Shown here: piece by piece, positions 1,335-27,895 of the stretch | Layout of the letters: the number at the start of each line of letters is the position of its first letter | Position numbering within the stretch: the first letter of the stretch is position 1 | Assembly (NCBI GenBank): GCA_036501665.1 | Contig: DASXZW010000024.1 | Location: forward strand, 1 to 27,895 | Direction of reading: 5' to 3' | Length of the DNA: 27,895 nt | Source: Verrucomicrobiia bacterium | Lineage (GTDB): Bacteria; Verrucomicrobiota; Verrucomicrobiia; Limisphaerales; Palsa-1400 | Translations under genes and position numbers: made by a program | The notes under the pieces: generated by a model | Told to the model about the DNA's origin: nothing | The model's input: the letters and a program-made list of their open reading frames with translations, nothing else | Databases searched by the model: none

Positions 1335-1461
1335 GCTCTATGACGACTTGGCCGGTTAGGACGTGCAACGCGGAAACATTTGTAGTGGCCGGGCGCAAGT
1401 CATTCCTGTTGACCGACAAAAAAAGTGTCCCGCGCATTTGAGTGGATGCTCCGGTCACTTC

Positions 1462-1770: not shown

Positions 1771-1780
1771 TGGAAGGCTC

Positions 1781-2443: not shown

Positions 2444-2457
2444 AATGCCTCCTTCAG

Positions 2458-5808: not shown

Positions 5809-5840
5809 GCCACATTTTTAGCGCAACAAGTTCGGTCAAG

Positions 5841-5870
5841 TTGTAATGAATTCATTACAATGTGGAGCAG
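5841..5870. other. Candidate oriT core: perfect 20-bp palindrome followed by a nic-like GTGG motif
   Basis: TTGTAATGAATTCATTACAA (5841..5860) is a perfect palindrome. It is followed at once by TGTGGAGC, which loosely resembles the F-type nic context GTGT/GGTGC. It lies in the divergent gap next to the relaxase start. The oriT function is inferred only. Confidence 0.35.
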
Positions 5871-6104
5871 TGAAGTGCGCTTCAATGGGGCGCATGAACG
5901 CGAAGCAAAAGCTTCATTTTTCACGGCACGCCTTACCTCTAACGTTCGTTAGAAATCTGGCTGGACAGCCTTGGGCCGCGAAACGGCTGCGGCTCAGACT
6001 CCCTTCACGCATCGCCGAGAAATCGGCCAGACAAATGTTGGACAACATTTGGACATCGTTGAGACAAGTCCGGGCCGCAGTCCGGCCAGAAGCAAATTGA
6101 TTTT

Positions 6105-6509
6105 ATGGAGTCCGAGCAACCCCAAACGCAATCATTCCGGGAAGCGGCGAAGGAATTCGACCGCACCCCGAAACTTTTCCGGCAGTTGATGAAATACAAA
6201 GACGACATCGCCGCATTGCGGCAGAAGGGCGCTTCCTTCGGCATCATCAGCGAGCTATTGCAAAAGGACAACGTAAGGGTTTCATGGAAAACCGTCTCGC
6301 GTTTCTGCCGTAAGATAATTGGCACCGAGAAACGAAGGAGAAAAAGCACGGACGCAATCCCGCCCTCTGGGCTTGTCGAAACGCGATCAAAAACCGGGGA
6401 CGGCGCGGCGAGCCTGCTTTCGGCGTTGAACGAACAACGGAGCAAGGTGGTCGGCCCTTGGACACCGCGAAAACGAGGCCCGCACATCACCGATTCAAAA
6501 AACCTTTAG
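6105..6509 (+). CDS. Small basic protein, possible relaxosome/mobilization accessory DNA-binding protein
   Basis: 134-aa ORF divergent from the relaxase and directly upstream of the ParA-like gene. It has an HTH-like segment (ASFGIISELLQKDNVRVSWKTVSRFCRK) and a basic tail. Function not established. Confidence 0.5.
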   Translation: MESEQPQTQSFREAAKEFDRTPKLFRQLMKYKDDIAALRQKGASFGIISELLQKDNVRVSWKTVSRFCRKIIGTEKRRRKSTDAIPPSGLVETRSKTGDGAASLLSALNEQRSKVVGPWTPRKRGPHITDSKNL

Positions 6510-6520
6510 AGACAAAATTT

Positions 6521-7267
6521 ATGAAAAAACGAATTGATACAATAATCAACGGCAAGGGAGGCGTGGGCAAGAGCTTCTTCGCCGTGAACTTCGTCCAATA
6601 CCTCAAGGACAAGTCCATTTCCCATGTCGCCATTGACACCGACAACGAGAACTCAACCCTCAAACGCTTCCATCCCGAAGCCGCATTTTTAGACATCGAG
6701 GACACCAAGGAAATTGACTCAATGTTCGCCGCCCTGGACAAAGCCGATTTGGTGGTCGTGGACTGCCGGGCGGCTTCGACGGACATTTTCCTGAACTATT
6801 TCGAGGAATTGCAGATTTTTCGGGTACTCGAAAAGGCAGGGGCTTTAATGACCGTTATTTCCCCGGTGAATCACGAAACGGACGGTTTGGAACAGATTCG
6901 CAACCTGAGCGAGCGATTGAATGACCGCTGCAATTATCTGGTCGTCAAAAATCAGGCGTTGTCAGAACGGTTCGGAAACTACGAGCAGAGCAAAACCCGC
7001 GCCCGCTTGGTGGGGGAACTTGGAGCCAAGGAAATCGTGATGCCGAGGCTTTACGATTGGCTGGTCGCGGACCTGAACAAACAGGATTTGACGATCACGC
7101 CCGCCATGCGGCACGAGTCCTTCACCCTGTTTGACCGGCAGCGCTTGTGCAACTGGCAACGCCAGTTTTACGAAGAACTGGATTCGGCCACGGACATTCT
7201 GCTTCCCCCGGCAAAGAAGATGCGGAAACTCGAGAACGATTCCAAGCCCAGCGATTTGCTTGTATGA
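6521..7267 (+). CDS. ParA/MinD-family P-loop ATPase (conjugative-element type)
   Basis: MKKRIDTIINGKGGVGKSFFAVN carries the deviant Walker A motif. Walker B-like: LVVVDCRA. The start at 6521 was chosen over 6458, which would overlap the upstream gene. Confidence 0.9.
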   Translation: MKKRIDTIINGKGGVGKSFFAVNFVQYLKDKSISHVAIDTDNENSTLKRFHPEAAFLDIEDTKEIDSMFAALDKADLVVVDCRAASTDIFLNYFEELQIFRVLEKAGALMTVISPVNHETDGLEQIRNLSERLNDRCNYLVVKNQALSERFGNYEQSKTRARLVGELGAKEIVMPRLYDWLVADLNKQDLTITPAMRHESFTLFDRQRLCNWQRQFYEELDSATDILLPPAKKMRKLENDSKPSDLLV

Positions 7268-7620
7268 CGGAACCCGCCAATTTTGAAAGCGCTGTCGTCG
7301 AGTGGAAGCATCGGCACCGCATCTGCGATGATGATCCAATTCTGGCCGCGTTGGAGTTATTGAAGGTGTTTTTTCAGAACGTAAAAATCGAGATTCCGCC
7401 CGATTCAGAGTCCGCGAAGCTCCTTGAGGTACGAACCGCCATCCAGCAGTTGAATCGGCTCGGAATAGATTTTTCAAAGCAAACGCGGGATTTGACGCTG
7501 GAGATGCGTACGTTGCCAGACCTCGACAAGCAGTTACGCTCCGGGCGCGCGAGCGCATTTGTTTTCACCGCCCTAGCCTGCCTGGGCGCAGGCATCCTCA
7601 TTGGAAAGTTTCTGTTATGA
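7264..7620 (+). CDS. Small C-terminally membrane-anchored protein (118 aa)
   Basis: ATGA start/stop overlap with the ParA-like gene, and ATGA overlap with the coupling-protein gene. C-terminal hydrophobic helix: AFVFTALACLGAGILIGKFLL. Confidence 0.6.
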   Translation: MTEPANFESAVVEWKHRHRICDDDPILAALELLKVFFQNVKIEIPPDSESAKLLEVRTAIQQLNRLGIDFSKQTRDLTLEMRTLPDLDKQLRSGRASAFVFTALACLGAGILIGKFLL

Positions 7621-9107
7621 ATGCGAATTGGCTTGGTTTTCTCACCGCAGGTCTTTCCCTTTTGGCTGGCGCGTATTCGTTCCTTTACCTCCACCAGCCC
7701 ACAGCATCCCTCATTGCGCTCGTGTTTGTGGGACTCGCCGCCTACGCGATTACGACTTCAGCGGCCAATGACGTCGGCGAAATCATTGTTCGCTTGAAAG
7801 GCTTTGTGTGGACCCGCGAAGATTTCTGTCGCGGCTGGCTTATTACGGGCGACACGGGTTCCGGCAAAACCCGTTCCGGGATCAACCAATTGCTGTTTCA
7901 AGTCTTCACCAACGACCCGAAATGGGGTGGTCTTTGCATTGATGACAAGGGCGTCTATTGGGAAACGCTGGTGGAAATGGCTACGCATTTTCACCGCGAG
8001 CAGGATTTGATTCTCGTCCAGATCAAACCTGACGATCCACCGGATGATTGGAAACCGACGCACACGTTCAACCTCATTTCCGACCCGTCCATCCCCTATT
8101 CCACGTATGCCAAGTTTGTAGTGGACACGGTGACGAGTTTGGGCCAACGGACAGAGCAGTCGTTCTTCAAAAGCCAGGCACAGACCCACATCGCGCTTGG
8201 TTTGGAAGTCCTCTCCCGCACCGGGATGGATGTGACGCTGGAAAACGTCCACGGCTTCCTTTTGGACGAAAACACCATGACCGATACTCTCAAAGACCTC
8301 GCGACGGATTATCCCACGGAGCGCGCGCAAAAGTTGGTGGACCATTTTGAAGATCGATATGCGAAGCAACCCCCCGAACAAATGGGCGGCGTCAAGGAAA
8401 CCATCGCCAACTACCTGCAATTCTTCCTGACGCCTGACATTGCCCAAGTGTTTTGCGCGCACCGCAACACGTTTGAGTTCCACGAAATTGATCGAGGCAA
8501 GATTATTTGTCTCGCCATGCCCCAAAAGTACCAGACTGAACGCCGTTACATAAACACGTTTTTGAAGATGCTTTTTTACAACCATGTTTTGCGAAGATTC
8601 GACCGCCGGAAAGAGGCACGTTCGGACGACAATCTTCTCATTTTATGGGCGGACGAAGCGCAGCGATTTGTGACGGCGAGCGACGAAGGCATGAGCGATT
8701 ACAACTGCATTGATGTCATGCGCGAGGCGCGCGCGACTCTCGTGGCGGCCGCGCAATCATCCACGTCGTTCGTTCCGCCGCTGGGGGAAGAAAAGGCGCA
8801 AGTCCTCACGCTCAATCTTCGCAACAGGATGGTTTTCAAAGCCGCAGACGAGGCCGGCGCGGTCGAAAGCGCCGATTTCCTTGGACAACGGAAAGTTCAA
8901 CAGACAACTCGTGGTTTTTCCGGTGGAATGCCTTCGCGGACATACACCAGCATCGAAGAGCACAAAATCAAACCCTACGAATTGCGCCATTTGAAAAAGC
9001 ACCAGTGCGTTCTCGTGCATTGCGAACGCGGGTTCAAACGAACCATTCTTGCGCCGTTGGAGCCGGATGGAGAGGTTTCCTCATGGTACAAAGGGAATTG
9101 GTTCTGA
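7617..9107 (+). CDS. Type IV secretion coupling protein (VirD4/TraD/TraG family)
   Basis: Two N-terminal hydrophobic helices. Walker A: GDTGSGKTRSG. Walker B: LLILWADEAQRF. It is 496 aa and sits beside the relaxase module. Confidence 0.88.
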   Translation: MNANWLGFLTAGLSLLAGAYSFLYLHQPTASLIALVFVGLAAYAITTSAANDVGEIIVRLKGFVWTREDFCRGWLITGDTGSGKTRSGINQLLFQVFTNDPKWGGLCIDDKGVYWETLVEMATHFHREQDLILVQIKPDDPPDDWKPTHTFNLISDPSIPYSTYAKFVVDTVTSLGQRTEQSFFKSQAQTHIALGLEVLSRTGMDVTLENVHGFLLDENTMTDTLKDLATDYPTERAQKLVDHFEDRYAKQPPEQMGGVKETIANYLQFFLTPDIAQVFCAHRNTFEFHEIDRGKIICLAMPQKYQTERRYINTFLKMLFYNHVLRRFDRRKEARSDDNLLILWADEAQRFVTASDEGMSDYNCIDVMREARATLVAAAQSSTSFVPPLGEEKAQVLTLNLRNRMVFKAADEAGAVESADFLGQRKVQQTTRGFSGGMPSRTYTSIEEHKIKPYELRHLKKHQCVLVHCERGFKRTILAPLEPDGEVSSWYKGNWF

Positions 9108-9342
9108 TTCGAAGCACCCGCCTCAACCGCGCTCCAGCGCAGGCGACAACTCCCTCAACTCGTGACAAGACGTTCTCAATCGTGGTATTTTCGGGCCATA
9201 TTGGACACACACGCATGACCGCAGGCCGAGCAAAAATAGCGCGCATCTGGCGACGGCTAGCCGAGACACTGGATATTGTCGGAATCCAGCGCATCGCTGG
9301 CGCGGAGGCGACGGTCGTTTCCGGTAATGAGGGAGGCCCAAC

Positions 9343-10566
9343 ATGAGCAAGCGTGCGCCTGACACCAAGGCGTTTTTTGCCGAAATCCGAAAGCACAAGC
9401 ACACGTACAAGCGGTTCCTGGATCGGTTGGACTTGCGGGCGGAGGTCCGCCGCGCCTTGCTCCAATTGCTCAAGGATGATTTTCAAATCGAGCCTTCCAG
9501 CGAGGAAGCCGCTGGCGGAAAGGAACTGATCGAAGCTGCGTCCGCTTTTGAATCCACTCCGTTGAATGACATCCACTGGAAATCATTGGATGAGCAAATG
9601 GTTGGAGCCTTTGCGGCCAAAATGGTGGAAAGTCCCGGTTCGCGTGTCTTCGATGAACCAGTCTTCCAGGCGCTTCACTCTCGCGGCTTGCTTTGGCGCA
9701 AGGGCGAAAAAGGTGACCACTTTGCCACCGCCGCCGGCTTCCTGCTCTTTGGCGTCCGTCCGGGCGACCGTTACCCTCAATGCGAAATCCTCGTTGATGC
9801 TTACGCCGACACGAAAATCTCCGGCAAACCGCGCGGTCAGGTCAATATCAATATCGCTTTGCCCAAGGCCATTGACCAAATTCTCGAATTTGTGGACAAA
9901 CACACGTTCCACCCGACTCGTGTCGTCGGCATCAACAATATCGCGCTGGATGAATACCCGCAGCGGGCGCTCCGCGAAGCCCTCGTCAATGCCGTCGCAC
10001 ACCGCAATTACGAGGACGCCAGCCGCAAAATCGCCGTTCAAGTCTTTTCCGACCGCATTGTTGTGGCCAGCCCCGGTTATCCGCCATCACCCCTGACGTT
10101 GGCAAAACTCCGTCGCGGCAACTATCGTCCCTGCTCTCGCAATTCCGTGATTGCCCAAGCCCTCGCGACGATGAACCTCATGGAACAGCGCGGCAGCGGT
10201 TTTGCTCGAATGCGCGACACGATGCTCAACCACGGATTGGACGCCCCCATTTACGGTCAGCAGGACGGTTTTTTCGTCGTCACCTTCCTAGGCCCGAACG
10301 GGAATTACGAACGGCTGAGACTCCCGGATGGCGCTGTTGGATTTATTTCGCCTGCCGTTGAAGCTCAACTCAACGAACGGCAAAAGCGGATTATGGTTCA
10401 AGTGCAAAGAGAAGGTTTCGTGACCAGCGGGTGGTGCCGAAGAGAATTGCCAGTCGTTTATGATACGATTCGCCGGGACTTGCTTGGCTTGGTCAGACTT
10501 GGGCTTATCCAAGTGCGTGGTCGAGGAAGGAACGCCCACTACATTCCCAAAAATGGGCGCGAATAA
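9343..10566 (+). CDS. AlbA_2 / HATPase_c_4-type putative DNA-binding regulator with C-terminal winged HTH (often annotated RecG-like ATP-binding protein)
   Basis: ALREALVNAVAHRNYED...IVVASPGYPP...CSRNSVIAQAL..MNLMEQRGSGFARM is the characteristic block of this family. C-terminal wHTH-like: RQKRIMVQVQREGFVTSG...LGLVRLGLIQVRGRGRNAHY. GAGGGAGG SD upstream. Confidence 0.8.
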   Translation: MSKRAPDTKAFFAEIRKHKHTYKRFLDRLDLRAEVRRALLQLLKDDFQIEPSSEEAAGGKELIEAASAFESTPLNDIHWKSLDEQMVGAFAAKMVESPGSRVFDEPVFQALHSRGLLWRKGEKGDHFATAAGFLLFGVRPGDRYPQCEILVDAYADTKISGKPRGQVNINIALPKAIDQILEFVDKHTFHPTRVVGINNIALDEYPQRALREALVNAVAHRNYEDASRKIAVQVFSDRIVVASPGYPPSPLTLAKLRRGNYRPCSRNSVIAQALATMNLMEQRGSGFARMRDTMLNHGLDAPIYGQQDGFFVVTFLGPNGNYERLRLPDGAVGFISPAVEAQLNERQKRIMVQVQREGFVTSGWCRRELPVVYDTIRRDLLGLVRLGLIQVRGRGRNAHYIPKNGRE

Positions 10567-10809: not shown

Positions 10810-11274
10810 ATGAAACGCAATCGCAACCGCAAATACGCAGCTCTGACGCTCCTGGGAAACTCCCAGGCAGCGTTTCCCAAGTCCCCTCAGAAGGCAACGC
10901 TTGAAGTGTTTGCGAATACCCACCCACAGCGCGATTACTCAATCCGCATTGACTGCCCTGACTTCACGTCGCTCTGCCCCGTGACCTGCCAACCCGATTT
11001 CGCCGAGATCGTTGTTGATTATATTCCCGATGCCCGTTGCATCGAGACGAAATCACTCAAGCTTTATTTGGCTTCGTATCGCAACGTGCATTCGTTCAAC
11101 GAAGCGGTAATCAATCGCATTCTCGACGATTTGGTTCGATCCTGCCAACCGCGCCGAATGCGAATCGAGGGTCACTTCGCCGCCAGAGGCGGACTTGCCC
11201 TCACCGTGATCGCGGCATATCCGCAAAGCGAAATTGACGCCGGTCGTCCCGTCCGAAAAGGAGGTAAAATATGA
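10810..11274 (+). CDS. queF: NADPH-dependent 7-cyano-7-deazaguanine (preQ0) reductase, unimodular type
   Basis: LTLLGN, FTSLCPVTCQPDF (catalytic Cys context) and ETKSLKLYLASYRN (QueF motif) match B. subtilis-type QueF. GGAG lies 9 nt upstream of the ATG at 10810. The upstream in-frame extension from 10591 was rejected. Confidence 0.9.
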   Translation: MKRNRNRKYAALTLLGNSQAAFPKSPQKATLEVFANTHPQRDYSIRIDCPDFTSLCPVTCQPDFAEIVVDYIPDARCIETKSLKLYLASYRNVHSFNEAVINRILDDLVRSCQPRRMRIEGHFAARGGLALTVIAAYPQSEIDAGRPVRKGGKI

Positions 11275-11975
11275 AAACAAAAGTTGTCGTACTCGTCAGC
11301 GGCGGAATGGATTCCGTTTCCGCCCTCTACGAAGCGCATCAGCAATACATTGTCACCGCCGCGCTCAGTTTTGACTACGGCTCAAAGCACAACCACAAAG
11401 AGATTCCATTTGCCGCGTGGCATTGTCAGAAACTCGGTATTCCTCACCACGCCATCTCTCTTGATTTTGTCGGCCAACTTTTCAAGTCTGACCTCTTGAA
11501 GTCCGGCGGCGCGATTCCAGACGGTCACTACGAAGAGCAAAGCATGAAGCAAACTGTCGTGCCCTTCCGTAACGGCATTATGCTCTCAATTGCCGGAGGC
11601 TTCGCTGAGTCCATAGAGGCGAACGGGTTGGTCATTGCTGCTCACTCAGGGGACCACGCCATTTATCCCGACTGCCGAGAGGATTTCATGAAGTCGATGG
11701 CAGATGCGCTTCGACTTGGCACGTACGCCGCCGTCGAAATCCTGCGCCCATTCATTCACCGGACAAAGGCTCAGATTGCCCAGCGCGGACACGACCTCGG
11801 TGTCGATTTCTCAAAAACCTGGTCATGCTATAAAGGGGGTGACATCCACTGCGGCACATGCGGCACATGCGTTGAACGCCGTGAAGCGTTCATGCTCACT
11901 GGACTTCCCGACCCGACAATTTACGCTGAAACCTCAACTCTGCCCCCGAAGCCGGCGGCAGCCATCCACACCTGA
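11271..11975 (+). CDS. queC: 7-cyano-7-deazaguanine synthase
   Basis: PP-loop: VVLVSGGMDS. C-terminal Zn site: CYKGGDIHCGTCGTCVERREAF. ATGA overlap with queF. Confidence 0.95.
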   Translation: MKTKVVVLVSGGMDSVSALYEAHQQYIVTAALSFDYGSKHNHKEIPFAAWHCQKLGIPHHAISLDFVGQLFKSDLLKSGGAIPDGHYEEQSMKQTVVPFRNGIMLSIAGGFAESIEANGLVIAAHSGDHAIYPDCREDFMKSMADALRLGTYAAVEILRPFIHRTKAQIAQRGHDLGVDFSKTWSCYKGGDIHCGTCGTCVERREAFMLTGLPDPTIYAETSTLPPKPAAAIHT

Positions 11976-11976
11976 A

Positions 11977-12669
11977 ATGCTCATCTCGGAGATTTTTTAC
12001 TCCCTTCAGGGCGAAGGCGAACTCACTGGTATCCCCTCGGTATTCGTCCGCACTTCGGGCTGTAACCTCCGTTGCAATTGGTGCGACACAATGTACGCCT
12101 CCTGGGAACCCGAGGGGACTCAAATGTCGATGGATGAAATCCTCCTCAAGGTGGACTCATTCCCGGCTCAACATTGCGTACTCACCGGAGGCGAGCCAAT
12201 GGTTGCCAAAGAAATCCACGCTCTGGCAACAGCACTTAAAGAGCGAGGTAAGCACATTACCATCGAAACCGCGACGACCGTTCCGCCCAAAAGCATCGCC
12301 TGTGATCTCGCGTCGCTCAGTCCTAAACTCAGCAACTCCACGCCGGACCAACGGTTGCCCGACGCTTGGCGACGAAAACACGATAAATTGCGCTGGCAGC
12401 CCCTTGTCATTCAACAATGGATCGACCATTACCCTTATCAATTAAAATTTGTCATAACGTCGGCAGCCGACCTCAATGAAATTGATTTGCTTTTGAATGA
12501 GGTGAACCGAACAATTCCGCCTATGAAAATCTTGCTAATGCCCGAAGGGACATCAGCAGAGACCATTCGAGGGCGAAACGAAACCCTGGTTGACCTCTGC
12601 AAGCGATATGGCTATCGCTACTGCGACCGTCTCCACGTCCAGCTTTTTGGACACACGCGAGGAACATGA
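11977..12669 (+). CDS. queE: 7-carboxy-7-deazaguanine synthase (radical SAM)
   Basis: MLISEIFYSLQGEGELTGIPSVFVRTSGCNLRCNWCDT is the canonical QueE N-terminus with the radical-SAM Cys cluster. The start lies 1 nt after the queC stop. Confidence 0.93.
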   Translation: MLISEIFYSLQGEGELTGIPSVFVRTSGCNLRCNWCDTMYASWEPEGTQMSMDEILLKVDSFPAQHCVLTGGEPMVAKEIHALATALKERGKHITIETATTVPPKSIACDLASLSPKLSNSTPDQRLPDAWRRKHDKLRWQPLVIQQWIDHYPYQLKFVITSAADLNEIDLLLNEVNRTIPPMKILLMPEGTSAETIRGRNETLVDLCKRYGYRYCDRLHVQLFGHTRGT

Positions 12670-13148
12670 TGCCATATCGTATTTGCAAAACTTTTGAGAT
12701 TGAAAATGGGCACATGCTCTCCAAACATCCTGACCTATGCAAATTTCCCCACGGTCACAGCCGCAAAGTCGAAATCGTTCTTGAGGCGGATTCATTGGAC
12801 GGCAATGAAATGGTCTGCGATTTCAAGGCCGTGACTGAGAGCCTAAACGAGCACCTTAAAACCCTCGACCACGCGATATGTGTCAATACCCAAGACCCGA
12901 ATTTCAAGCAGCTTAAGACCGCCTATGGCGACCGCGTCGTCGCCTTCGAAGCTCTCGACCCCACCACCGAGGTCATCGCCAAAGCGATTTTTGATTTTGC
13001 AAAGTCCAGACTGGTTGCGTACGGCTGCAAACCATCCGCCAAATACCCAATTCGCCCCAACATCCGATTGGTTAAAATCCGTCTCTGGGAAACCAGTAGT
13101 TCTTGGGCGGAGTACTTTGAGGCCAGCGGCACTCCACCACGCGAATGA
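12666..13148 (+). CDS. queD: 6-carboxy-5,6,7,8-tetrahydropterin synthase
   Basis: ICKTFEIENGHML...CKFPHGHSRKVEIVLEA..MVCDFKAV carries the PTPS/QueD Cys and His motifs. ATGA overlap with queE. The start could equally be 12669. Confidence 0.92.
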   Translation: MMPYRICKTFEIENGHMLSKHPDLCKFPHGHSRKVEIVLEADSLDGNEMVCDFKAVTESLNEHLKTLDHAICVNTQDPNFKQLKTAYGDRVVAFEALDPTTEVIAKAIFDFAKSRLVAYGCKPSAKYPIRPNIRLVKIRLWETSSSWAEYFEASGTPPRE

Positions 13149-13960
13149 AATACGCCCACACCAAGCCCCTCGCTGACATACAAAAAACCAGGGACCGGCG
13201 TGGTGTTAAAATCGACAAAGTTGGCGTCTGCGATCTGTCGTTTCCGATCACGGTTCTGGATCGCCAGAACCAGCGCCAGCAGACTGTTGCGACGGTTTCC
13301 ATGTCGGTGAGCCTGCCCCACCATTTCAAAGGCACCCACATGAGCCGATTCCTCGAAGTGCTCTGCCGACACCAGGGCGAAGTGACAATGCGAACGCTGC
13401 CTGCAATTCTTCACGACTTGAAGGATCGCCTCGAATCCGAAGCCGCCCACATCGAAGTTGATTTTGCCTATTTTCTCACCCGCAGAGCCCCGGTCAGTGG
13501 TTCGGAAGCACCAATGGATTACCGTTGCACGTTCATCGGCGAATCAAATGGCTTAAAAGACGATTTTCTTCTCCGCGTCCGTGTCCCTGTGACAACCCTA
13601 TGCCCATGTTCAAAAGAGATCAGCGATTACGGCGCGCATAACCAACGCGGTCTTGTCACTCTCACCGTCCGCCCTGAACGCAAGAATGGCCTCTGGGAAC
13701 TCATCTGGATCGAGGAACTCATCCTCATCGCCGAAAAATCCGCCTCGGCCCCTGTCTATCCTCTGCTCAAACGCCCGGACGAGCGCCACGTCACTATGCA
13801 GGCCTTCGACAATCCAGTCTTCGTCGAGGACGTTGTCCGCAACGCTGCCCGCATCCTGCAAAAGGACAGGCGCATAGCTTGGTTTGAGGTTCGAGCCGTC
13901 AATCAGGAGAGCATCCACAACCATTCCGCTTTTGCCGTGGTGGAGTCCAAAAGTGCGTGA
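13145..13960 (+). CDS. folE2: GTP cyclohydrolase I type 2 (GCYH-IB)
   Basis: DIQKTRDRRGVKIDKVGVCDLSFPI...SLPHHFKGTHMSRF...TTLCPCSKEIS..GAHNQRG is the FolE2/MptA-family pattern. ATGA overlap with queD. Confidence 0.92.
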   Translation: MKYAHTKPLADIQKTRDRRGVKIDKVGVCDLSFPITVLDRQNQRQQTVATVSMSVSLPHHFKGTHMSRFLEVLCRHQGEVTMRTLPAILHDLKDRLESEAAHIEVDFAYFLTRRAPVSGSEAPMDYRCTFIGESNGLKDDFLLRVRVPVTTLCPCSKEISDYGAHNQRGLVTLTVRPERKNGLWELIWIEELILIAEKSASAPVYPLLKRPDERHVTMQAFDNPVFVEDVVRNAARILQKDRRIAWFEVRAVNQESIHNHSAFAVVESKSA

Positions 13961-14216
13961 ACGACCCCATGTCCCTCTGCCACCAGCCTGCCGCTCCCAG
14001 TCCTTGAGCTGCACCTTCCTAAATTCGACTCCGCTGATTTCTGCCGATTTCTGTTGAAATCTGGCTGGTAGGTCTGGAATCCTCTGCTCCAGAGTATGCT
14101 CCGAGCGGATTTGATACGCCAGAGCTTGCCAAACGTGGGAATCGGTTCCTCGGACGCGTTGGATCGGCCGAGGAAAGAAGCGATTTCGCTCAACAAACAT
14201 ATTAAATAGAGGTCCC

Positions 14217-15713
14217 ATGAGACCCAGCGACAAAACATATTTCACGCACCTTCCCACGGGCAAAATTAGGGCGAACCCCTTCAACCCTCGAAAAACCTTC
14301 GACCAAGAGAGCCTAGATGAACTGGCTGCGAGCCTTGCAACTCACGGAGTTTTGCAGCCTCTCATCGTTTACGAAGACGAAACCTTTTTCGTCCTCATCT
14401 GCGGCGAACGCCGCCTGAGAGCCGCCCGTCAAGCCGGTCTGCCAGAAGTCCCAGCCATCGTTCATCCCATTCCCCCGGAAAACCCGCAGATGCTCTCGAT
14501 GATGCTCATCGAAAATCTGCAACGGAAGGAAGTCGATGTGGTGAATGAGTCTGCGGCGATTCGCCTATTGATAGAGGAGCACAACTGGTCCGTGGCCAGG
14601 GTGTCCAGAAGCTTGGGCGCCGGGGCAGCCTACGTCCGAAAACGGTATCTCCTTACTAAATTCAGTGACGTCCTCGTAGCCTTCACGAACAACACGATTT
14701 CATATTCTGAGGCCATCGAACTTGCATCGATTGAGGATGAGACCGTGCGAAAGTGGTTTTTCAGGCGTATCGAATCCGGAGAGCTTGCCGATTTGAAGAA
14801 ACTTGCCACAGCCGTGTCCCGCGATAAGCAGATCCACAACCTTTTGGGGAAAGGAACCTTCCTCAAACAGGCCCTTGATCGGTCCGCCGTCGAGTTTCAA
14901 GTTGATGGCCTTCCGTACTGCGATCCAAAATGTCCACACTACTTTCGAATTAGCTGGGACGAAAAGCAGCAGTACAAGATTCCGCACAGGAAGCCGGGTT
15001 GGGCAGAATTCTGTACAGACAAATGCGGGTCGTGCTACACGCAAAAGGTTAATGCAAAACAAACGAAACTGTCTGCATTGCGCTCCTTGAAGGCCCAAAG
15101 GCCAATCGCCGATGACGACTTTTCTTCGATGATGTGGCTTAATTACGAGGGGAAGTCCTGCCGAACCTGCCCGTGGATGGTGGAGACGACCGCCCTTGAG
15201 GAGGCTGGCCTAACCCCCCCCCCGAAAGCCCACGCCGTTTGCTCTTGCCCCTCCCCTGAATGCTACGATAAACGGACGCACGTTCTCAACAAGCGTGCGT
15301 CCAGACTTGATTTGCAAAAACAGCAATCCGACGATCTCAAACGTAAAATCCTCTTGAAAGAACTGAAAACGCCGTCCAACAAATTGAGTCAGAATCCCCG
15401 TCCCCAACTTACCAAACGGGAGTGTGCCTTCATCCTACTTCAGACCATTTCGCTCCTTGGAGGTCACGCACGTATACGTGACTTCGCGGAACGCCACGGC
15501 TGGGCAGATAAAATGCCCGCCCAGACCTACGCACAAGTGAAATTTGTACGGAATAAGATTCTCGATGAAATGTCCGAGGCAGACCTCTACGAAGCCCTGC
15601 TCAATGAAGCATGCCTCTCCGCAGCTTATACCACCGAGCCCTTTGTCCCGCTCCGGTTTAGGAGGGATGTTCAAAGCGAAGTCCCGGTGCAAACGAAGGA
15701 AGTTGATGAGTAG
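14217..15713 (+). CDS. dpdB: ParB/Srx N-terminal domain protein with a Cys-rich C-terminal half; DpdB-like by synteny with the TGT-like gene
   Basis: NPFNPRKTFDQESLDELAASLATHGVLQPLIV...ICGERRLRAARQAGL is the ParB box with the GERRxRA motif. Its 3' end overlaps the TGT-like gene by 8 nt. GAGG SD upstream. The symbol is assigned by context, not by alignment. Confidence 0.7.
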   Translation: MRPSDKTYFTHLPTGKIRANPFNPRKTFDQESLDELAASLATHGVLQPLIVYEDETFFVLICGERRLRAARQAGLPEVPAIVHPIPPENPQMLSMMLIENLQRKEVDVVNESAAIRLLIEEHNWSVARVSRSLGAGAAYVRKRYLLTKFSDVLVAFTNNTISYSEAIELASIEDETVRKWFFRRIESGELADLKKLATAVSRDKQIHNLLGKGTFLKQALDRSAVEFQVDGLPYCDPKCPHYFRISWDEKQQYKIPHRKPGWAEFCTDKCGSCYTQKVNAKQTKLSALRSLKAQRPIADDDFSSMMWLNYEGKSCRTCPWMVETTALEEAGLTPPPKAHAVCSCPSPECYDKRTHVLNKRASRLDLQKQQSDDLKRKILLKELKTPSNKLSQNPRPQLTKRECAFILLQTISLLGGHARIRDFAERHGWADKMPAQTYAQVKFVRNKILDEMSEADLYEALLNEACLSAAYTTEPFVPLRFRRDVQSEVPVQTKEVDE

Positions 15714-22746: not shown

Positions 22747-24032
22747 CCATTCCACTTATTACATCATACACTGAGTTTCAGCAGCGCCTCGGCTACTGCA
22801 AGCTCCTCCTGGCCGTTTCCAAGCGAGCCGCCTCACAGCCCGAACAGGTGCTCAGACAACTCGATCACATATTTTTCAAGCCTACCGCCGACGGACACGA
22901 CACTTACCTCGGTCAAATCCTTGGGAAGCAGGTCCAAGTCAAAACAGCCCACTCCCACCTCCGTCTCCACAATTCCCTAGCCGAAACGGATAGCACGACG
23001 AGCCTTCGCAGCTTCGGGAACGAAGCAAAAGAGATACTAACGCTCTGCAGGGCGCTCGGATTGGTTGATGACCGCGTTGTTATCCTCGAAAACGCTATGC
23101 CTCTCATTCGTCTCATCCCCGAGGCTTCCTGGGATCTTGTTCGCCAAGGCTTACGGCCTGACGAGTACAACCCCTTGATCCTCGATCATGGCACCAGCAA
23201 TGTGAGCGAAAAAACCTACTTCCTTATTCGTCTATTAAGCGAGGACATTGCGTTTACATTGCTTCCTCTGGCTCTTCGCTCCAAAACTCGGACTGCTTTC
23301 CATCGCTACATTGATTGGGATGGGCTAAAAACCGACGATTTTCCCTCTAACAATATGTTAACGGTGGTCTATGAAGACCTAATATGCAGCGCCAAACCAA
23401 GACTCTTCGGTGAGGTCCGCAATGCCAAGAATTTAGACAACTATTTCCTTGGTGATCCTCGCAAACGGCGTACTCATCCCGGCATGCGGCAGTACGCGCG
23501 CTTCAGACATCAGGCTACACCGCGACTTGCGTTTCTGAAGGAACTGGGTATAATTGCGTCCCAACCTTTGCCGCCACCGGATTCTCATCTCTCGAAGCAA
23601 TACTCATATCTTCTTACGCCAACAACAGAAGCATACGTCGAATACATTCGGAAGACGTTACTGGCGGACGGGCTGGATAGCGAGGAGTTTGTGCGGAATC
23701 ACGCCTTTAAAATTGCAAGTATAATATACCATAGGGTCACTCGGCGACCCGTAGATCAGGAGGAAGTATTCCGTTACTTTTTGCGCGCGTATGTGCGACT
23801 AAAGCGCGACATGGGGAATACCCCCTCCGGTAGCATTTGTATGTTAGGATGCCTTCTCGCACAGGACGATGGCCTTTTAATAGAAATAAAGGAAATGCAC
23901 CAAGTCGGGCGGGACTACGCCCGTAAGTACTCTGAGTTTCTCCGCTATTCGGGTGGCAGCATTCAACTTGGAGATTATCTTATATCAGTTGATCATAGAT
24001 TGCTGCAAAACCTTGGTATCCAGAACCCATAA
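22743..24032 (+). CDS. Hypothetical protein (429 aa)
   Basis: Long ORF with ATGA overlap onto the HerA-like gene. No motif recognised. Confidence 0.65.
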   Translation: MTIPLITSYTEFQQRLGYCKLLLAVSKRAASQPEQVLRQLDHIFFKPTADGHDTYLGQILGKQVQVKTAHSHLRLHNSLAETDSTTSLRSFGNEAKEILTLCRALGLVDDRVVILENAMPLIRLIPEASWDLVRQGLRPDEYNPLILDHGTSNVSEKTYFLIRLLSEDIAFTLLPLALRSKTRTAFHRYIDWDGLKTDDFPSNNMLTVVYEDLICSAKPRLFGEVRNAKNLDNYFLGDPRKRRTHPGMRQYARFRHQATPRLAFLKELGIIASQPLPPPDSHLSKQYSYLLTPTTEAYVEYIRKTLLADGLDSEEFVRNHAFKIASIIYHRVTRRPVDQEEVFRYFLRAYVRLKRDMGNTPSGSICMLGCLLAQDDGLLIEIKEMHQVGRDYARKYSEFLRYSGGSIQLGDYLISVDHRLLQNLGIQNP

Positions 24033-24045
24033 TCGAAGAACAATT

Positions 24046-24903
24046 ATGCCATCAAACAAGCCAAAGCCAAACGATATCGCCGAAAGCCCCCTCGGTCCGC
24101 TTGCCTTGAAAGTTTTTGACCGCTCAAAAGTTTGGTCGCTTTTAGCAAAGCAGGTGGAGGACTGCTTTGTTTTCGCCAACGCCACTCCGAACGCCCAACT
24201 CGATCCATTTAAGGTCGCACTACTCCTGCCGCAACTCCAATTACACTTCAGAACTACTAATGACCCTCCCGACGCAGATCTGTCCGCACTACAGGCATGG
24301 ACAAATCAAGAGTGCCGACGTGCAATTGCTGAGTTCGAGGTTGCTTTGCAAAAATTGTGCGCGGCAGAAAAACTCCAAGTAGAAGGCCGGTTCCCTCACT
24401 TCATTCTTGCAGGATTCCTCGAAATTATAGTTCAAGATAAACAACCCGTTTGTAAAATCGGTGGGTCCAGCTTAAATACAGTGAACCTTTCAATCGTTGC
24501 GCCTGTAATCCTTCAAAGGATCAGGGAGGACACCGCCCGCAAGTTCGACCCCAAGTTATTTCTTGATCAACTATACAAAGCTTATCAACGAACCGCTCTC
24601 AATGGGCGAATTCCGGGAGGCGAGCCCGTGCTTGCGAAGTTGATTCTTCCAGAGATCGCCTTTATTAAACAATCGCTCGCTTTCTTGAAGTCGCCGTCCA
24701 AGGCTGCCTTCGTCGATTACACCTTGGAACACTTCGCTCGTGATTTGGCCCTCATTCTGAAAGACGGCAACGTTTGCACCTCTAACGGCAAGCGTTTACA
24801 CCCAACACCAGTGTCCAATTCGTCTGACGGCATTCCAGTTATGATCGACGGCGCTTATCGATACATAGGACGTCTCACCTTCTTGGAGGAAACCCAGCGA
24901 TGA
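24046..24903 (+). CDS. Hypothetical protein (285 aa)
   Basis: The start MPSNKPKP at 24046 lies 13 nt after the previous stop. The 23953 start would overlap by 80 nt. No motif recognised. Confidence 0.6.
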   Translation: MPSNKPKPNDIAESPLGPLALKVFDRSKVWSLLAKQVEDCFVFANATPNAQLDPFKVALLLPQLQLHFRTTNDPPDADLSALQAWTNQECRRAIAEFEVALQKLCAAEKLQVEGRFPHFILAGFLEIIVQDKQPVCKIGGSSLNTVNLSIVAPVILQRIREDTARKFDPKLFLDQLYKAYQRTALNGRIPGGEPVLAKLILPEIAFIKQSLAFLKSPSKAAFVDYTLEHFARDLALILKDGNVCTSNGKRLHPTPVSNSSDGIPVMIDGAYRYIGRLTFLEETQR

Positions 24904-26207
24904 GCACACTGGATCAACCGTTAGCCAAACGGCTCATTTCGCGCCTGAAGGCAGGTACGGCGCCCATTGACTGTGTGGACCAATTGAATGTTGGAAATGA
25001 AGCTTGGTACAGTGCTGCTGTTCAATACTTTGAGGACTTAGCTCAGGATGGCGACGCCCTCGTCCGCTTCGTGCGCGGCCACTATGGTGATGGCAAAACA
25101 CACTTTTTAGGGATGCTCGGTGCTCTCGCATTCAAAAACGGTTGGAGCGTCAGCTACGTTACCGCCGAGAGAACCAAACTTCACAAATTCGAGGTCGTCT
25201 ATTCCGAAATTATAAAGGCCATAAATCTTCCGCCAGGTGTTTCAATTGTCCCCTGGCTTACTGAAATCAGACCGAGGGGGGCGATGTCCCTGTTGGGAGC
25301 CTTTTTCTCCAAGATATACATCGACGTGCATGGTGCTGCCAATGAACATGGCATCAATCGAATGTCGGTACTTCACGAGGTTAAACAACGTGTGGCCAAG
25401 TTTAGTGCGGCGAACGGATTCCACGACTTAGTGAGCACAGCGCTCATGATTTTCACGAAAGCAGCACTGGCACAAGAGGCTCAAGGAATGTCTGACATGG
25501 TTTCATGGTTTCAGGGTGATGATGTTAAATTTAGAGATAAAGGAATAAATAGGCGGATCGACCAACGTCTTGCAAGAGATGTGCTTCGCTGTCTCACGCA
25601 AGTATCCCAGCACGTAGGGATTCGTGGCACCTTGGTCCTTCTTGACGAGGCGGAACTTATATTGGCACAAACGAAGTCTGTACGCACTAAATCCTATTCG
25701 GTGCTTCGTGACCTCCTCGATAATGCCGATCCGCAAGCAGGAATGCGCGCATCCATTATATATATTGCTGCGACACCAGAAATGTTCACGGCTAAAGAAG
25801 GCTTTGCTGAGTACGAAGCGCTGCGCTCGCGCCTAATGCCGGCATTATCCTTTACATCCAAGAGATTCATCGACTATCGCGACGTGGTAGTTGATCTCAC
25901 GCGAACCCCGCTTCCTGCGGACCTCCTGTTCCAGCTTGCAAAGAAAGTACGTGGAATCCATTCTGTTGCCAGACAGTGGGACGCTTCGGCTCACATTTCG
26001 GACGATCTGCTACAGATCATTGTCACGCGGATAGACAACGGGTCGTTTCCCGTCTCGAAGCCGCGCATGGTTACTTCCGTGATTACGCAGCTTCTGGAGT
26101 CCGCTGAGCAGAACAGGACCGAGGACCCCACTTTGGCAATTGAAGCGACGGTGTCGGATGCGGCACAAACACTCTCCATGCGGCCCGATTCCGAGAAATG
26201 GGATTGA
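24900..26207 (+). CDS. P-loop NTPase, BrxD/DUF2791-like (paralog 2)
   Basis: LISRLKAGTAPIDCVDQLNVGNE...VRFVRGHYGDGKTHFLGML is a DUF2791/BrxD-style N-terminus plus Walker A. Walker B: LVLLDEAEL. ATGA overlap with the upstream gene. Confidence 0.72.
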   Translation: MSTLDQPLAKRLISRLKAGTAPIDCVDQLNVGNEAWYSAAVQYFEDLAQDGDALVRFVRGHYGDGKTHFLGMLGALAFKNGWSVSYVTAERTKLHKFEVVYSEIIKAINLPPGVSIVPWLTEIRPRGAMSLLGAFFSKIYIDVHGAANEHGINRMSVLHEVKQRVAKFSAANGFHDLVSTALMIFTKAALAQEAQGMSDMVSWFQGDDVKFRDKGINRRIDQRLARDVLRCLTQVSQHVGIRGTLVLLDEAELILAQTKSVRTKSYSVLRDLLDNADPQAGMRASIIYIAATPEMFTAKEGFAEYEALRSRLMPALSFTSKRFIDYRDVVVDLTRTPLPADLLFQLAKKVRGIHSVARQWDASAHISDDLLQIIVTRIDNGSFPVSKPRMVTSVITQLLESAEQNRTEDPTLAIEATVSDAAQTLSMRPDSEKWD

Positions 26208-27895
26208 ATCAGCGGGAATTTCAGATGAACCTAACGAAATCAAGTGCTCGCTGCGCAATTCGGCACTTGAAGCGTGGCGTGTTCCCGCCAGATGAGATTG
26301 AGCATTTCACGGCGGGCCGCGACTCCGAGTGCAAAGCTCTCAACATCGCCCTTAAAGAAGCAGAACAGGGGGGAAACCGCCATTTCTTTATCGAAGCGAG
26401 CTATGGCGTGGGCAAATCACACATGCTCAAGCTCGTTGAGTCACTTGCACTACGAAATGGCTTCGCGGTGTGCTGGGTAACTACTGACGGTTACGCGCAC
26501 GCTTTCAACCATCCTACCCGCTATTTGCACACCCTTCTCGAGAACATGAGAGTTCCAGGTTTGCACAGAAACGGGTTCGCTCAAGCGTGTTCGCATTGGC
26601 TCAAGAACCGCGAACGCGACAACCTACTTACTCGCGTTAAGAGTCAGCCTAACAATGCGCTTCACTGGCCTATTATCCGCATGAGTATGGAAAACGGTGA
26701 CGAGGGCGACTATAAGGATTACTATCTGGGTAACCTAGAGTGCCGCGATCTACAGCATAGAAACGGTCAAGCGTTTTTTGATTGTGTGTATGACCGCATC
26801 GCGTCAATGAACTCGGTGTGTCGTTCTGTAAGTTTAAAAGGAACTGTGTTTCTATTCGACGAAGTTGAATCCGTGGCTACTCTTTTGGTTAATATTCGTT
26901 CTCGTCTTCTTTCTTACGAGTTAATGAATGCATTCACCGATGCTCGCCGATTTCCAAATTCTGTATTTGTATTCGCCACCACCCTCGATTTCAGTGTTAA
27001 GATTCATTACGAGCTGAATGCTTACGAACTCCAAAACTATGCGTATCCAGAAGGCAATCGTTTCGCAAAAAAGTGGATTTCAAAAGGCATAAATCTTCTC
27101 AAGTTAGAAGGAATCAGCCAAGGAAATAATCGAGTACTGTTGCGTAATATTCGGACCGCCCACGAGACCGCCTACGAATGGGTGGCAACCGAAAAGATCA
27201 GCGACCATTTCATCGATCGGTTCCTCAAAAAGGCCAATGATCTTCCTCAGCGTGAGATTACGAGGAGCTTCGTCACTATTCTGGAAATCTCACATCAACA
27301 TCCCACCTGCTGCCCGGCAACCGAATTCCTTGGCGAGGCGTCGCCCACGCCGCAAATTGTGGAGGGCAATGACTCTAGGGTGGTTCGGGAGACCTTTGGT
27401 TCACAGGACGTACCACCATCGCCATGCACTCCGCAAGCGGAGTCGACTTCGGCATCACGTTCTTCTAAAGCAGAGCCGCCAAAAAACCAGTCAACTCCTG
27501 ATTCGTCAACTGTTACGCATGAAACGCCGTTGCCAGATCAAAACCTTAGTTCCTTTCCGCAGCTTGGTTCTTCCACGGCACCATTGACTACTCCAAACAC
27601 TGGCCTATTGCCGTGCGTTCATTGCTTTGCATCAGTAAGGTCTGACCGTATGGGAAGGCATATTGCTCGGTTTCACGCAGGTTTGCAGCCGCCAACCAAT
27701 GTTGCGCCAATGGAAGCCACCGTGGACCAGCCGGGCAAATCAACATCAAATAGCGCGGAAGGCACTTTCACCAGCACCTCAATCTGTTTGGTGCCGTGTA
27801 ATTATTGCTTTTGCATGGTCAGATCTGACAGATTGCAACGACACATACAACGTGTGCATTCAGGGCAACATCGTCCTCCAAGTCCCAATGACTAG
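26198..27895 (+). CDS. P-loop NTPase, BrxD/DUF2791-like (paralog 3), with an S/T/P-rich linker and two C-terminal C2H2-like zinc fingers
   Basis: Walker A: FFIEASYGVGKSHMLKL. Walker B: VFLFDEVES. C-terminal CVHCFASVRSDRMGRHIARFH and CNYCFCMVRSDRLQRHIQRVH. The stop TAG is the last 3 nt of the window. The start could be 26198 or 26225. Confidence 0.72.
   Translation: MGLNQREFQMNLTKSSARCAIRHLKRGVFPPDEIEHFTAGRDSECKALNIALKEAEQGGNRHFFIEASYGVGKSHMLKLVESLALRNGFAVCWVTTDGYAHAFNHPTRYLHTLLENMRVPGLHRNGFAQACSHWLKNRERDNLLTRVKSQPNNALHWPIIRMSMENGDEGDYKDYYLGNLECRDLQHRNGQAFFDCVYDRIASMNSVCRSVSLKGTVFLFDEVESVATLLVNIRSRLLSYELMNAFTDARRFPNSVFVFATTLDFSVKIHYELNAYELQNYAYPEGNRFAKKWISKGINLLKLEGISQGNNRVLLRNIRTAHETAYEWVATEKISDHFIDRFLKKANDLPQREITRSFVTILEISHQHPTCCPATEFLGEASPTPQIVEGNDSRVVRETFGSQDVPPSPCTPQAESTSASRSSKAEPPKNQSTPDSSTVTHETPLPDQNLSSFPQLGSSTAPLTTPNTGLLPCVHCFASVRSDRMGRHIARFHAGLQPPTNVAPMEATVDQPGKSTSNSAEGTFTSTSICLVPCNYCFCMVRSDRLQRHIQRVHSGQHRPPSPND

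Follow-up and report, generated by a model that had tools for sequence, protein, structure and literature searches.

We analyzed a window of 27,895 nucleotides (nt) from a Verrucomicrobiia bacterium (positions 1 to 27,895 of contig DASXZW010000024.1, GenBank assembly GCA_036501665.1), in which positions 10810 to 27895 carry a 16-gene island that, judging from its sequence, seems to represent a new modular variant of modification-based immunity. The island starts with five genes for the synthesis of a deazaguanine precursor, followed by the genes of a ParB/Noc-type protein and of a TGT::DUF5591 fusion. After this left arm come a terminator-like element, a small Zn-ribbon gene (g132) and an eight-gene cassette, or right arm, that encodes a σ54-type activator, a PLD-family nuclease, four further P-loop ATPases, and two proteins without an assigned family. 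The original prediction had described sixteen co-directional genes with almost no gaps, and all 16 open reading frames (ORFs) are indeed uninterrupted, located on the + strand, opened by an ATG, and tightly packed. Their junctions consist of overlaps of 4 to 10 nt or gaps of 1 to 13 nt, except for four wider gaps, of 256 nt before the ParB gene, 73 nt before g132, 153 nt before the PLD gene, and 188 nt before the g378 gene. That synteny is retained even where protein identity falls to 35% indicates that these ORFs are genuine genes and not chance frames.

A predicted modification operon with a ParB-linked TGT::DUF5591 fusion

The first gene, queF (10810..11274), encodes a unimodular preQ1 synthase (NADPH-dependent preQ0 reductase; PF14489, 1.3e-30), and its score against TIGR03139 (161 bits for a cutoff of 87) identifies the product as a true preQ1 synthase. 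It is followed by queC (preQ0 synthase, 11271..11975; PF06508, 4.6e-61; TIGR00364, 184 bits for a cutoff of 150), queE (radical-SAM CDG synthase, 11977..12669; Radical_SAM, 7.8e-14), queD (CPH4 synthase, 12666..13148; PTPS, 5.9e-27; TIGR03367, 7.5e-20), and folE2 (GTP cyclohydrolase IB, 13145..13960; PF02649, 8.3e-92; NF010200, 278 bits for a cutoff of 215). The top NCBIfam matches of QueE were all QueE models, below cutoff, and its ATG lies in fact at 11977 and not at 11980, as had been proposed. Pfam and NCBIfam matches confirmed the earlier assignment of genes 1 to 7 to precursor synthesis, a ParB-like protein, and a TGT-like protein. We found queF in four cassettes (the window and the related loci L006, L085, and L087) and noted its absence from four others (L097, L099, L088, and L098), so we regard QueF as accessory.

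The sixth gene (14217..15713) encodes a ParB/Noc-type protein, with an N-terminal ParB_N domain (8.7e-25), a helix-turn-helix (HTH_ParB), and a C-terminal half rich in Cys. It matched structures of the CTPase clamps ParB, Spo0J, and Noc in the PDB at 1e-25 to 1e-18 and contains a GERRLRAA box of the GERRxRA type, the GERR motif being at residue 63. Its gene overlaps that of the TGT::DUF5591 fusion by 8 nt in the window, which points to translational coupling, and lies directly upstream of it in every locus of the ParB-linked clade. By analogy to DpdB, we predict that the ParB-type protein is a DNA-loading or targeting partner of the fusion.

The seventh gene (15706..17640) combines a TGT domain (2.9e-17) with a DUF5591 domain, the ArcS C1-type tailoring domain (1e-19). 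The nearest named families in NCBIfam were ArcS and arcTGT, both below cutoff (ArcS, 88 bits for a cutoff of 440), and generic TGT, and a profile of the family searched against PDB sequences matched solely arcTGT (1IQ8) and the DUF5591 protein AF0587 (2Q07). Comparison of 12 diverse sequences revealed that the DSGG motif (D135), D177, the GVDxFD motif (D313/D316), the zinc site CxCxxC...H (C357/C359/C362/H405), and the PCx3KPY motif are unchanged. We take D135, D177, D313/D316, and the zinc-site residues to have the TGT catalytic roles mapped from established TGT structures. Since the catalytic, zinc, and PCx3KPY residues are invariant, the protein looks competent for both base exchange and ArcS-type tailoring, and we predict that it inserts and modifies a 7-deazaguanine in DNA. 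A Pfam scan detected no PUA or other RNA-binding domain in it.

Genes about 33% identical to the TGT::DUF5591 gene occur in Poribacteria, cyanobacteria, Chloroflexi, and haloarchaea, where ParB and both types of effector arm described below are missing, and this sets the ParB-linked clade apart as a distinct offshoot. The haloarchaeal genes adjoin queC, queD, queE, and a second TGT gene, as for the synthesis of tRNA archaeosine. Such ArcS-like genes (L007 to L084; for example, L008, L015, L026, and L046) were common in Poribacteria, cyanobacteria, and Chloroflexi, with the catalytic residues kept and with no ParB, que, or effector neighbors. We found no relative of the fusion in 2.9 million viral contigs (IMG/VR), and in the plasmids of PLSDB it was represented solely by haloarchaeal ArcS-like genes.

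The modification operon is closed by a terminator-like element (17667..17713, + strand) made of a box, AGAGGCTC-N2-3-GAAGCCC, followed by a hairpin and a U-run. The hairpin and its T7 run (17677-17713) end right at the ATG of g132. A consensus terminator scanner overlooked this hairpin. It is conserved in seven loci, with 13 pairs, 4 of which show compensatory changes, and on this ground we consider the terminator, which had been placed after gene 7, to be real. The box and hairpin recur in L006 (11974-12025), L097 (11970-12020), L098 (12013-12062), and L088 (7379-7443), covering both arm types, and the AGAGGCTC-N2-3-GAAGCCC box is able to fold into a 4-bp mini-hairpin. A role in protein binding or attenuation is conceivable for the invariant AGAGGCTC box. 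We also considered a riboswitch or other known RNA between TGT and g132 and rejected it for lack of an Rfam match.

The g132 gene (17714..18112) encodes a small protein that carries a Zn ribbon (CxxxxC...CxxC) at its C terminus, and a homolog of it gave a weak Zn_ribbon_Com match. Homologs of g132 were found after TGT::DUF5591 in the loci with an ATPase/PLD cassette and also in four loci with Dpd-type helicase genes (L088, L092, L094, and L098), with E values of 1e-10 to 1e-14. Because it comes after the terminator in both kinds of loci, g132 is either a member of the modification module or an adaptor heading either arm. It had been counted among the components of the right arm, and this view has to be revised, as g132 goes with the modification module whichever arm comes next.

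An eight-gene ATPase/PLD cassette

The gene content of the right arm agrees with the original prediction, which had listed, after the Zn ribbon, a sigma-54-type AAA+ protein, a PLD nuclease, and an ATPase-rich operon of six genes; we found a Sigma54_activat AAA+ protein, a PLDc_2 protein, and six more genes, including four for P-loop ATPases. The Walker A and B motifs are intact in five of the proteins, namely, the activator, g378, g466, and the two proteins of 435 and 565 amino acids (aa) described below. The 400-aa protein encoded by the first gene (18125..19327) is a putative PspF-like σ54 enhancer-binding AAA+ protein (Sigma54_activat, 1.7e-28; RtcR/PspF models, 1.5e-37). Its ATPase domain begins at the very start of the protein, which, like PspF, therefore lacks a sensor domain, and HTH_8 gave no match in it. 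The GAFT[GD]A loop is kept in five orthologs, as GAFTDA in the window and as GAFTGA in L085 and L100. This protein had been grouped with the effector ATPases, and we consider that it is instead most likely the transcriptional activator of the right arm.

We located a σ54-type -24/-12 box, TGGCAT-N5-TCGC (19454..19468, + strand), 12 nt before the ATG of the PLD gene. A box lies at the matching place in L004 (TGGCATACGACTCGC) and L085 (TGGCACGCGACTCGC), and partially in L006 and L002, the general form being TGGCA(C/T)-N5-NNGC. We gave credit to this box because its position is conserved in spacers that are otherwise unalignable. In L100, a similar σ54-type box is found ahead of the activator gene instead. 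Just past the activator gene, the palindrome GGCAAT-N3-ATTGC(C/G) (19339..19353, + strand), kept in L004 and L006, is a candidate operator or upstream activating sequence. Another candidate operator is the exact 11-mer TAACACACGTT, which is present in the PLD-g378 spacer of the window (20052-20062), in L004 (7310), and in the activator-PLD spacer of L097 (13624), a locus with 35% identity.

The second gene of the cassette (19481..20011) encodes a single-HKD PLD-family nuclease of a size like that of Nuc and BfiI (PLDc_2, 2.8e-6, just above cutoff; RE_NgoFVII, 1e-4). The HxK (HSK) and GSxN (GSAN) parts of the catalytic motif are intact and kept in five orthologs, including that of L100, and we predict from these motifs that the protein is the effector nuclease. 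Its best PADLOC match was ZacB (5.6e-11), and DrmC and PbeA matched weakly. The PLD component had been presented as shared with Dpd systems through DpdK, an equation that these matches do not bear out, since no DpdK-named model was among them.

Four of the six genes that follow encode ATPases. g378 (20200..21336) is a divergent BrxC/BrxD-type (ORC/Cdc6-like) P-loop ATPase (AAA_22, 0.0037). Within its family, the L002 ortholog matched BrxC_BrxD at 2.4e-5, and the BrxD565 family hidden Markov model (HMM) matched the L100 ortholog at 2e-6. g466 (21346..22746) is a HerA/FtsK-like P-loop ATPase and a putative DNA translocase (PADLOC mad8, 3.3e-11; HerA, 2e-8), with DUF87 detected in its orthologs and weak matches to HerA and FtsK structures of the PDB. 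We rejected membership in MADS, as g466 alone resembled mad8 and no further mad model was matched. The 435-aa protein (24900..26207) is a BrxD-like ORC/Cdc6-type AAA+ ATPase (BrxC_BrxD, 6e-46; PADLOC BrxD, 8e-39, and SngB, 1e-25) that scored 131 bits on the NCBIfam BrxD model NF033438, below the cutoff of 350. The 565-aa protein (26198..27895), its distant paralog, is a second BrxD-like ATPase (BrxC_BrxD, 1.4e-23; weak C2H2). The C terminus of the 565-aa protein (approximately 27400-27895) consists of a Ser/Pro/Thr-rich low-complexity linker and two CxxC...HxxxxH zinc-finger repeats; this tail is confined to the window and the L004 lineage, and orthologs of 371 to 382 aa (L097, L005, and L099) are without it.

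The remaining two proteins, g429 (22743..24032) and g285 (24046..24903), belong to no known family. Six homologs of g429 were found among 5.8e9 proteins, and all those with a readable context sit in the same type of cassette. Out of 1.84 billion representatives, a profile search recovered 113 clusters, including seven close relatives, and a cluster look-up of the remote relatives returned metagenomic singletons alone. Neither Pfam nor PADLOC nor the PDB yielded a relative when searched with the 50-member g429 superfamily. The AF2 model of g429 has a pLDDT of 47 overall, too low for use in a fold search, and of 66 to 86 over residues 340 to 429, and these C-terminal ~90 residues are predicted by the model to adopt a helix-helix-helix-strand-strand arrangement resembling a winged HTH (wHTH), so far as a model of this kind can be read. 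We consider g429 a candidate DNA-recognition subunit. It did not match the DUF4007-position (380-aa) protein of a BREX-related capture (BRC)-like locus, a candidate identity that we rejected. g285 has eight homologs and a better model (pLDDT, 72; pTM, 0.65). Kinship of g285 or g429 with DpdG was also rejected (hhalign probability of 0.2%). Close homologs of g429 and g285 were never found outside such cassettes.

We obtained no match to helicase families (DEAD, ResIII, Helicase_C, and SNF2), to DpdC (DUF328/DUF6884), or to any Dpd-named model among the proteins encoded between 17.7 and 27.9 kb. The NCBIfam library does hold DpdE to DpdH models, which are matched by sister loci. The domain and model scans thus bear out the absence of DpdC and of SF2 helicase motifs from this region, as first read from the sequence. 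The proposal that the right arm is undescribed also stood, as a PADLOC 2.0 run matched no model set and g429 and g285 have no relative in Pfam, PADLOC, or the PDB.

Related loci and the probable exchange of effector arms

The full architecture of 15 or 16 genes was found in at least six independent loci, with 35 to 97% protein identity and with the gene order rearranged in one of them. A metagenome scan contributed no more than five loci to the comparison. The ATPase/PLD cassette follows the modification module in the window, L004, L006, L097, and L085, the last having an extra HTH/M78 gene in an otherwise identical arrangement. L085, L099, and L087 were recovered by searches that started from the TGT protein. 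Among the loci with a g429 homolog, identity is 95% for L004, 72% for L005/L006 (on a 2.1-Mb Verrucomicrobiae contig), and 35% for L002/L097 (on a 120-kb contig). In L099, the right-arm genes are located upstream of the que-ParB-TGT genes, and since both arms are kept in swapped order, their linkage survives rearrangement. Signs of decay or sequencing error were seen in L087, where the right-arm genes are broken up, in L093, where the ParB and TGT genes are frameshifted (6947-10412), and in L005/L006, where g378 is split in two (L006, 14260-15521).

In four sister loci (L088, L092, L094, and L098; TGT 48 to 61% identical), the same que-ParB-TGT::DUF5591 module, terminator box, and g132 are followed by Dpd genes. 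NCBIfam models identified DpdE (647 bits for a cutoff of 500), DpdF (615 bits for a cutoff of 550), DpdG (88 bits for a cutoff of 80), and a DpdH-like protein (419 bits for a cutoff of 450). As the same ParB-TGT::DUF5591-terminator-g132 unit precedes DpdE/F/G and DpdH-like genes, the module is tied to DNA restriction-modification. Furthermore, in a neighbor-joining tree of TGT, calculated without support values, L098 (Dpd arm) lies beside L097 (ATPase/PLD arm) and the two arm types interleave, which suggests that the arms have been exchanged. We consider that exchange of modules between the modification unit and the effector arms is well supported by these comparisons. The recombination of the modification arm with a different machine, put forward in the original prediction, is accordingly upheld, as the same module is joined to the ATPase/PLD cassette, to DpdE-H, or to nothing (L090). 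In the modification operon of L098, we also noticed a nucleoside 2-deoxyribosyltransferase-like gene (8098-8475), and QueE is apparently missing from this locus.

The window ends at the last stop codon of the island, and the source contig runs on for just 237 bases, which had left room for helicase genes immediately downstream. The related loci answer this caveat, as none has a helicase gene downstream of the last BrxD-like gene; what follows there are small unknown ORFs, a TPR protein, opposite-strand genes, or a fragment of a gene for a TrwB/TraG-type coupling protein (T4CP). The 237 bp past the window end contain two copies of a 23-nt direct repeat, GTAAGCGGTWAAGGAGCGACCGC (L001, 11741-11763 and 11809-11831; 68 nt from start to start), which is absent from all other fetched loci. 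Comparison of the contig tail with the window start revealed no terminal overlap of the kind expected for a circular plasmid.

Upstream of the island, the window carries a mobile backbone composed of genes for an HNH_2 protein (543-1334), a TrwC relaxase with a helicase domain (2989-5808, - strand), a ParA-like ATPase (6458-7267), a T4CP (7617-9107), and an HATPase_c_4 protein (9343-10566). The presence of the TrwC relaxase, ParA-like, T4CP, and HNH genes indicates that the island is carried by a conjugative or mobilizable element. The backbone genes (543-10566) are not kept beside the cassette elsewhere, the one exception being L006, where a T4CP-like fragment (21604-21864) follows the cassette.

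Proposed mechanism, alternatives, and relation to known systems

We infer that the island is a three-module restriction-modification-like system. Our working model, to which we give an even chance on the strength of gene content and synteny, is that the left arm provides DNA with a 7-deazaguanine mark and that the σ54-controlled cassette restricts unmarked DNA, in the role that DpdE-H would have elsewhere. FolE2, QueD, QueE, and QueC, identified by homology, would make preQ0, which the optional QueF can reduce to preQ1. The ParB/Noc-type protein, acting as a nucleoside triphosphate-binding clamp, would load or target TGT::DUF5591 onto DNA, where the TGT domain would swap guanine for the 7-deazaguanine base and the ArcS-C1 domain fused to it would then convert the nitrile in place, most likely giving a 2'-deoxyarchaeosine-type amidine. 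The mark is probably of this archaeosine type, since preQ0 synthesis and the ArcS-type domain are common to the cassettes. The conserved terminator would end the modification operon, and g132 would then head whichever effector unit is attached. The PspF-like activator would drive the σ54-type promoter ahead of the PLD gene, with the six-gene block coming after. By analogy to BREX, BRC, and capture systems, the ATPases and the two rapidly evolving orphan proteins may assemble on DNA, assess it, pump it, and pass it to the PLD nuclease, DNA bearing the deazaguanine mark being spared; the cassette would thereby fill the slot occupied by the DpdE-H helicase genes in sister lineages. A bolder version, which we advance only tentatively and consider rather doubtful, is that the eight genes form a helicase-free effector class that reads a 7-deazaguanine self-mark laid down by a ParB-guided TGT::ArcS fusion, with g132 as a universal adaptor. 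If g132 is such an adaptor, the same module could plug into either the ATPase/PLD cassette or the DpdE-H helicases.

Several observations speak against a marking arm coupled to a restricting arm. The comparison set amounts to about a dozen loci, all metagenomic. The C1 motif of the window is slightly degenerate (PCx3KPYxxAxxH versus ...SxxH, with Ser replaced by Ala and the His kept), a trait that it has in common with the active ArcS2 of phage nt-1 (PMC10516641), and the window QueF would turn preQ0 into preQ1, which is without the nitrile that the ArcS-type domain acts on. We identified no domain in the island that would read modified bases; the g429 model is unreliable, and g285 had no Pfam or PADLOC match and nothing at E<0.01 by Foldseek against the PDB and BFVD. 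In the window, a lone match to the σ54 consensus does not exceed what chance would give. L087 combines an intact left arm with a fragmented right arm (12496-15981), and L090 has ParB, TGT::DUF5591, and a YhhQ/Vut_1 precursor transporter (5277-5909) with no effector arm. Finally, L100, the one distant member of the g429 profile whose context could be placed, has an ortholog of each of the eight right-arm genes, with the gene order unchanged, and no g132, ParB, TGT, or que gene (family-HMM E values of 8e-68 to 9e-167 for most; PLD, 6e-5; g429, 9e-43; g285, 2e-24). The completeness of the L100 cassette implies that the right arm is autonomous and need not read a deazaguanine mark. The gene neighborhoods that the original prediction had singled out as a check therefore gave a divided answer, since all close g429 and g285 relatives with a readable context lie in such cassettes and the distant L100 arm stands apart from que, TGT, and ParB. 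L100 is flanked by recombinase fragments and by a convergent cluster (12846-19091) whose products are a 992-aa N6/N4 methyltransferase, a ResIII/RE_endonuc protein, and a helicase of the UvrD type. This cluster either constitutes a separate restriction-modification-like system or provides the cassette with another modification partner.

These points lend themselves to a reading, the main rival of our model, in which two autonomous neighbors share their descent. The left arm would hypermodify the DNA of the element or host to evade restriction, as phage DpdA does, which we see as possible and somewhat doubtful; the right arm would be a self-contained, σ54-induced HerA/BrxD/PLD defense or exclusion cassette, blind to the mark, a proposal that we hold with the same reserve. 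The complete right arm of L100, the module of L090 alone with its transporter, the fragmented arm of L087, the terminator between the units, and the TrwC relaxase, T4CP, and ParA genes of the window, together with the T4CP-like fragment beside the L006 cassette, all fit such independence. It is harder to reconcile with a linkage that holds down to 35% protein identity and through the L099 rearrangement, with an arm that, behind the same terminator and g132, takes exactly the slot of DpdE-H in sister lineages, with the confinement of close g429 and g285 homologs to such cassettes, and with the lack of a TGT::DUF5591 relative among the viral contigs. We judge it rather improbable that the island is a guard or addiction module, in which the σ54 activator would be held off during modification, with g132 as a possible go-between; it seems equally improbable that a disturbed pathway (through anti-modification factors or island loss) would fire the PLD/ATPase operon and cause abortive infection or postsegregational killing. 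PspF, which the sensorless activator resembles, is controlled in trans, a putative σ54-type promoter precedes the nuclease gene, g132 always lies between the modification operon and the arm, and the setting is that of a mobile element; however, in L100, which lacks g132 and modification genes, both the activator and the arm are retained, and the Dpd-helicase loci have g132 without a σ54 activator.

We attach very little probability to TGT::DUF5591 being a bacterial archaeosine-type tRNA-modifying enzyme, to which the ParB and ATPase/PLD genes would be unrelated neighbors. ArcS and arcTGT are its nearest named families, and the ~33%-identical haloarchaeal genes lie beside queC, queD, queE, and a second TGT gene. 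Nevertheless, in the ParB-linked clade the gene always comes after that of a ParB-type DNA-binding protein, overlapping it in the window, and DNA-restriction arms come next, bona fide DpdE-H included; its ~33% relatives have neither ParB nor the two arms, and the RNA-binding domains searched for were not detected in the fusion.

If the model of a marking left arm and a restricting right arm is true, the island represents a second, evolutionarily separate route to deazaguanine-marked bacterial DNA, with an arcTGT/ArcS-type fusion and a canonical ParB clamp in place of DpdA, DpdB, and DpdC, and an archaeosine-like base, so far reported solely in phage DNA, would be a bacterial self-mark. The related loci offer a natural swap experiment, in which one modification module has either Dpd helicase genes or a helicase-free ATPase/PLD cassette attached; both arms share g132 and little else, which narrows the hunt for the mark reader of Dpd-type effectors. 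The right arm alone is a candidate new defense system, not in PADLOC 2.0, and its own σ54 activator would be an unusual control of immunity genes.

Our literature search found no published ParB-linked TGT::DUF5591 module and no eight-gene σ54/PLD/BrxD/HerA cassette, and resemblances to known systems are partial. Over its whole length, the 435-aa protein can be aligned to BrxD of BREX type 2 and to SngB of Shango. Unlike BREX (types 1 to 6), the island has BrxD-like ATPases alone, PglZ, PglX, BrxC/PglY, BrxP, and BrxHI being missing, and the TerB and helicase partners of Shango are missing as well. HerA/FtsK-Orc/Cdc6 capture systems and DndFGH (PMC10853773) have in common with the island HerA/FtsK and ORC/Cdc6 ATPases, a nuclease, mobile neighborhoods, and rapidly evolving putative DNA-binding proteins. 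The island differs from them by a PLD nuclease instead of a restriction endonuclease, three separate BrxD-like ATPases, its own σ54 activator, and g429 and g285 proteins without demonstrated wHTH arrays. In Vibrio phage nt-1, DpdA2 puts preQ0 in DNA and the DUF5591 protein ArcS2 converts it to dG+ (PMC10516641). The same pairing of transglycosylase and DUF5591 (ArcS C1) domains is found in the island, where they are fused in one polypeptide, belong to a different TGT clade, have a ParB partner, and are encoded in a cellular or mobile-element-borne locus beside effector arms rather than in a phage genome.

By analogy, BRC (NAR 2026) is the nearest published counterpart of the coupling between modification and effector. 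It comprises a PglZ effector, a BrxC-like ATPase of the DUF6079 type, a STAND NTPase, DUF4007, HerA/FtsK, GNAT, and TGT, the TGT-family enzyme being proposed as the source of a deazaguanine self-mark, and DpdB-like partners are reported missing (PMC12839542). The island likewise has a HerA/FtsK translocase, universal in BRC, in the form of g466, and BrxC/BrxD-type ORC/Cdc6 ATPases alongside a TGT-family enzyme. However, PglZ, DUF6079, STAND NTPase, DUF4007, and GNAT were undetected in the island (E<=0.01 to 1), which adds a PLD nuclease, a σ54 activator, ParB, g132, and a full que pathway, and for these reasons we do not regard it as a member of BRC. The single match to g466 in PLSDB (24% identity) lies in a BRC-like Haloplanus locus with QueD-, TGT-, and QueF-like genes. 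This locus (L096; Haloplanus sp. HW8-1 plasmid NZ_CP098519.1, 107101-124451) has, besides QueD and GNAT genes, a TGT-like ORF and genes for a HerA-like ATPase and for a BREX ATP-binding protein of 1363 aa, and a small ORF annotated as hypothetical matched QueF at 3e-14.

The Dpd system, for which we used dpdA-K of the Salmonella Montevideo type as a reference (Thiaville 2016; PMC10164549, PMC5699537), also associates a TGT-family enzyme, a ParB-superfamily partner, and clustered preQ0 genes with a separate multigene restriction unit. In contrast to DpdA, the TGT of the island is arcTGT/ArcS-like and fused to DUF5591, with no match to the DpdA family or to its solved structure. DpdB is DndB-like (PMC5699537), whereas the partner in the island is of the canonical ParB/Noc type without a DndB match, that is, of the same superfamily and of a different family. 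None of the 16 proteins has the domain of DpdC (DUF328/DUF6884), the enzyme that turns dPreQ0 into dADG. An extra Zn-ribbon gene is present, and the SNF2/DEAD helicases of the Dpd restriction operon (DpdE, DpdF, and DpdJ, accompanied there by DpdG, DpdH, and the PLD protein DpdK) are replaced by the σ54 activator, the PLD protein, three BrxD-like and one HerA-like ATPases, and the two orphan proteins. The designation of a Dpd-type modification arm therefore holds by analogy and fails by family (arcTGT/ArcS-type TGT, Noc-type ParB, and no DpdC): as far as protein families allow the comparison, the left arm is Dpd-like in its logic and built from different protein families, and thus analogous to Dpd rather than orthologous.

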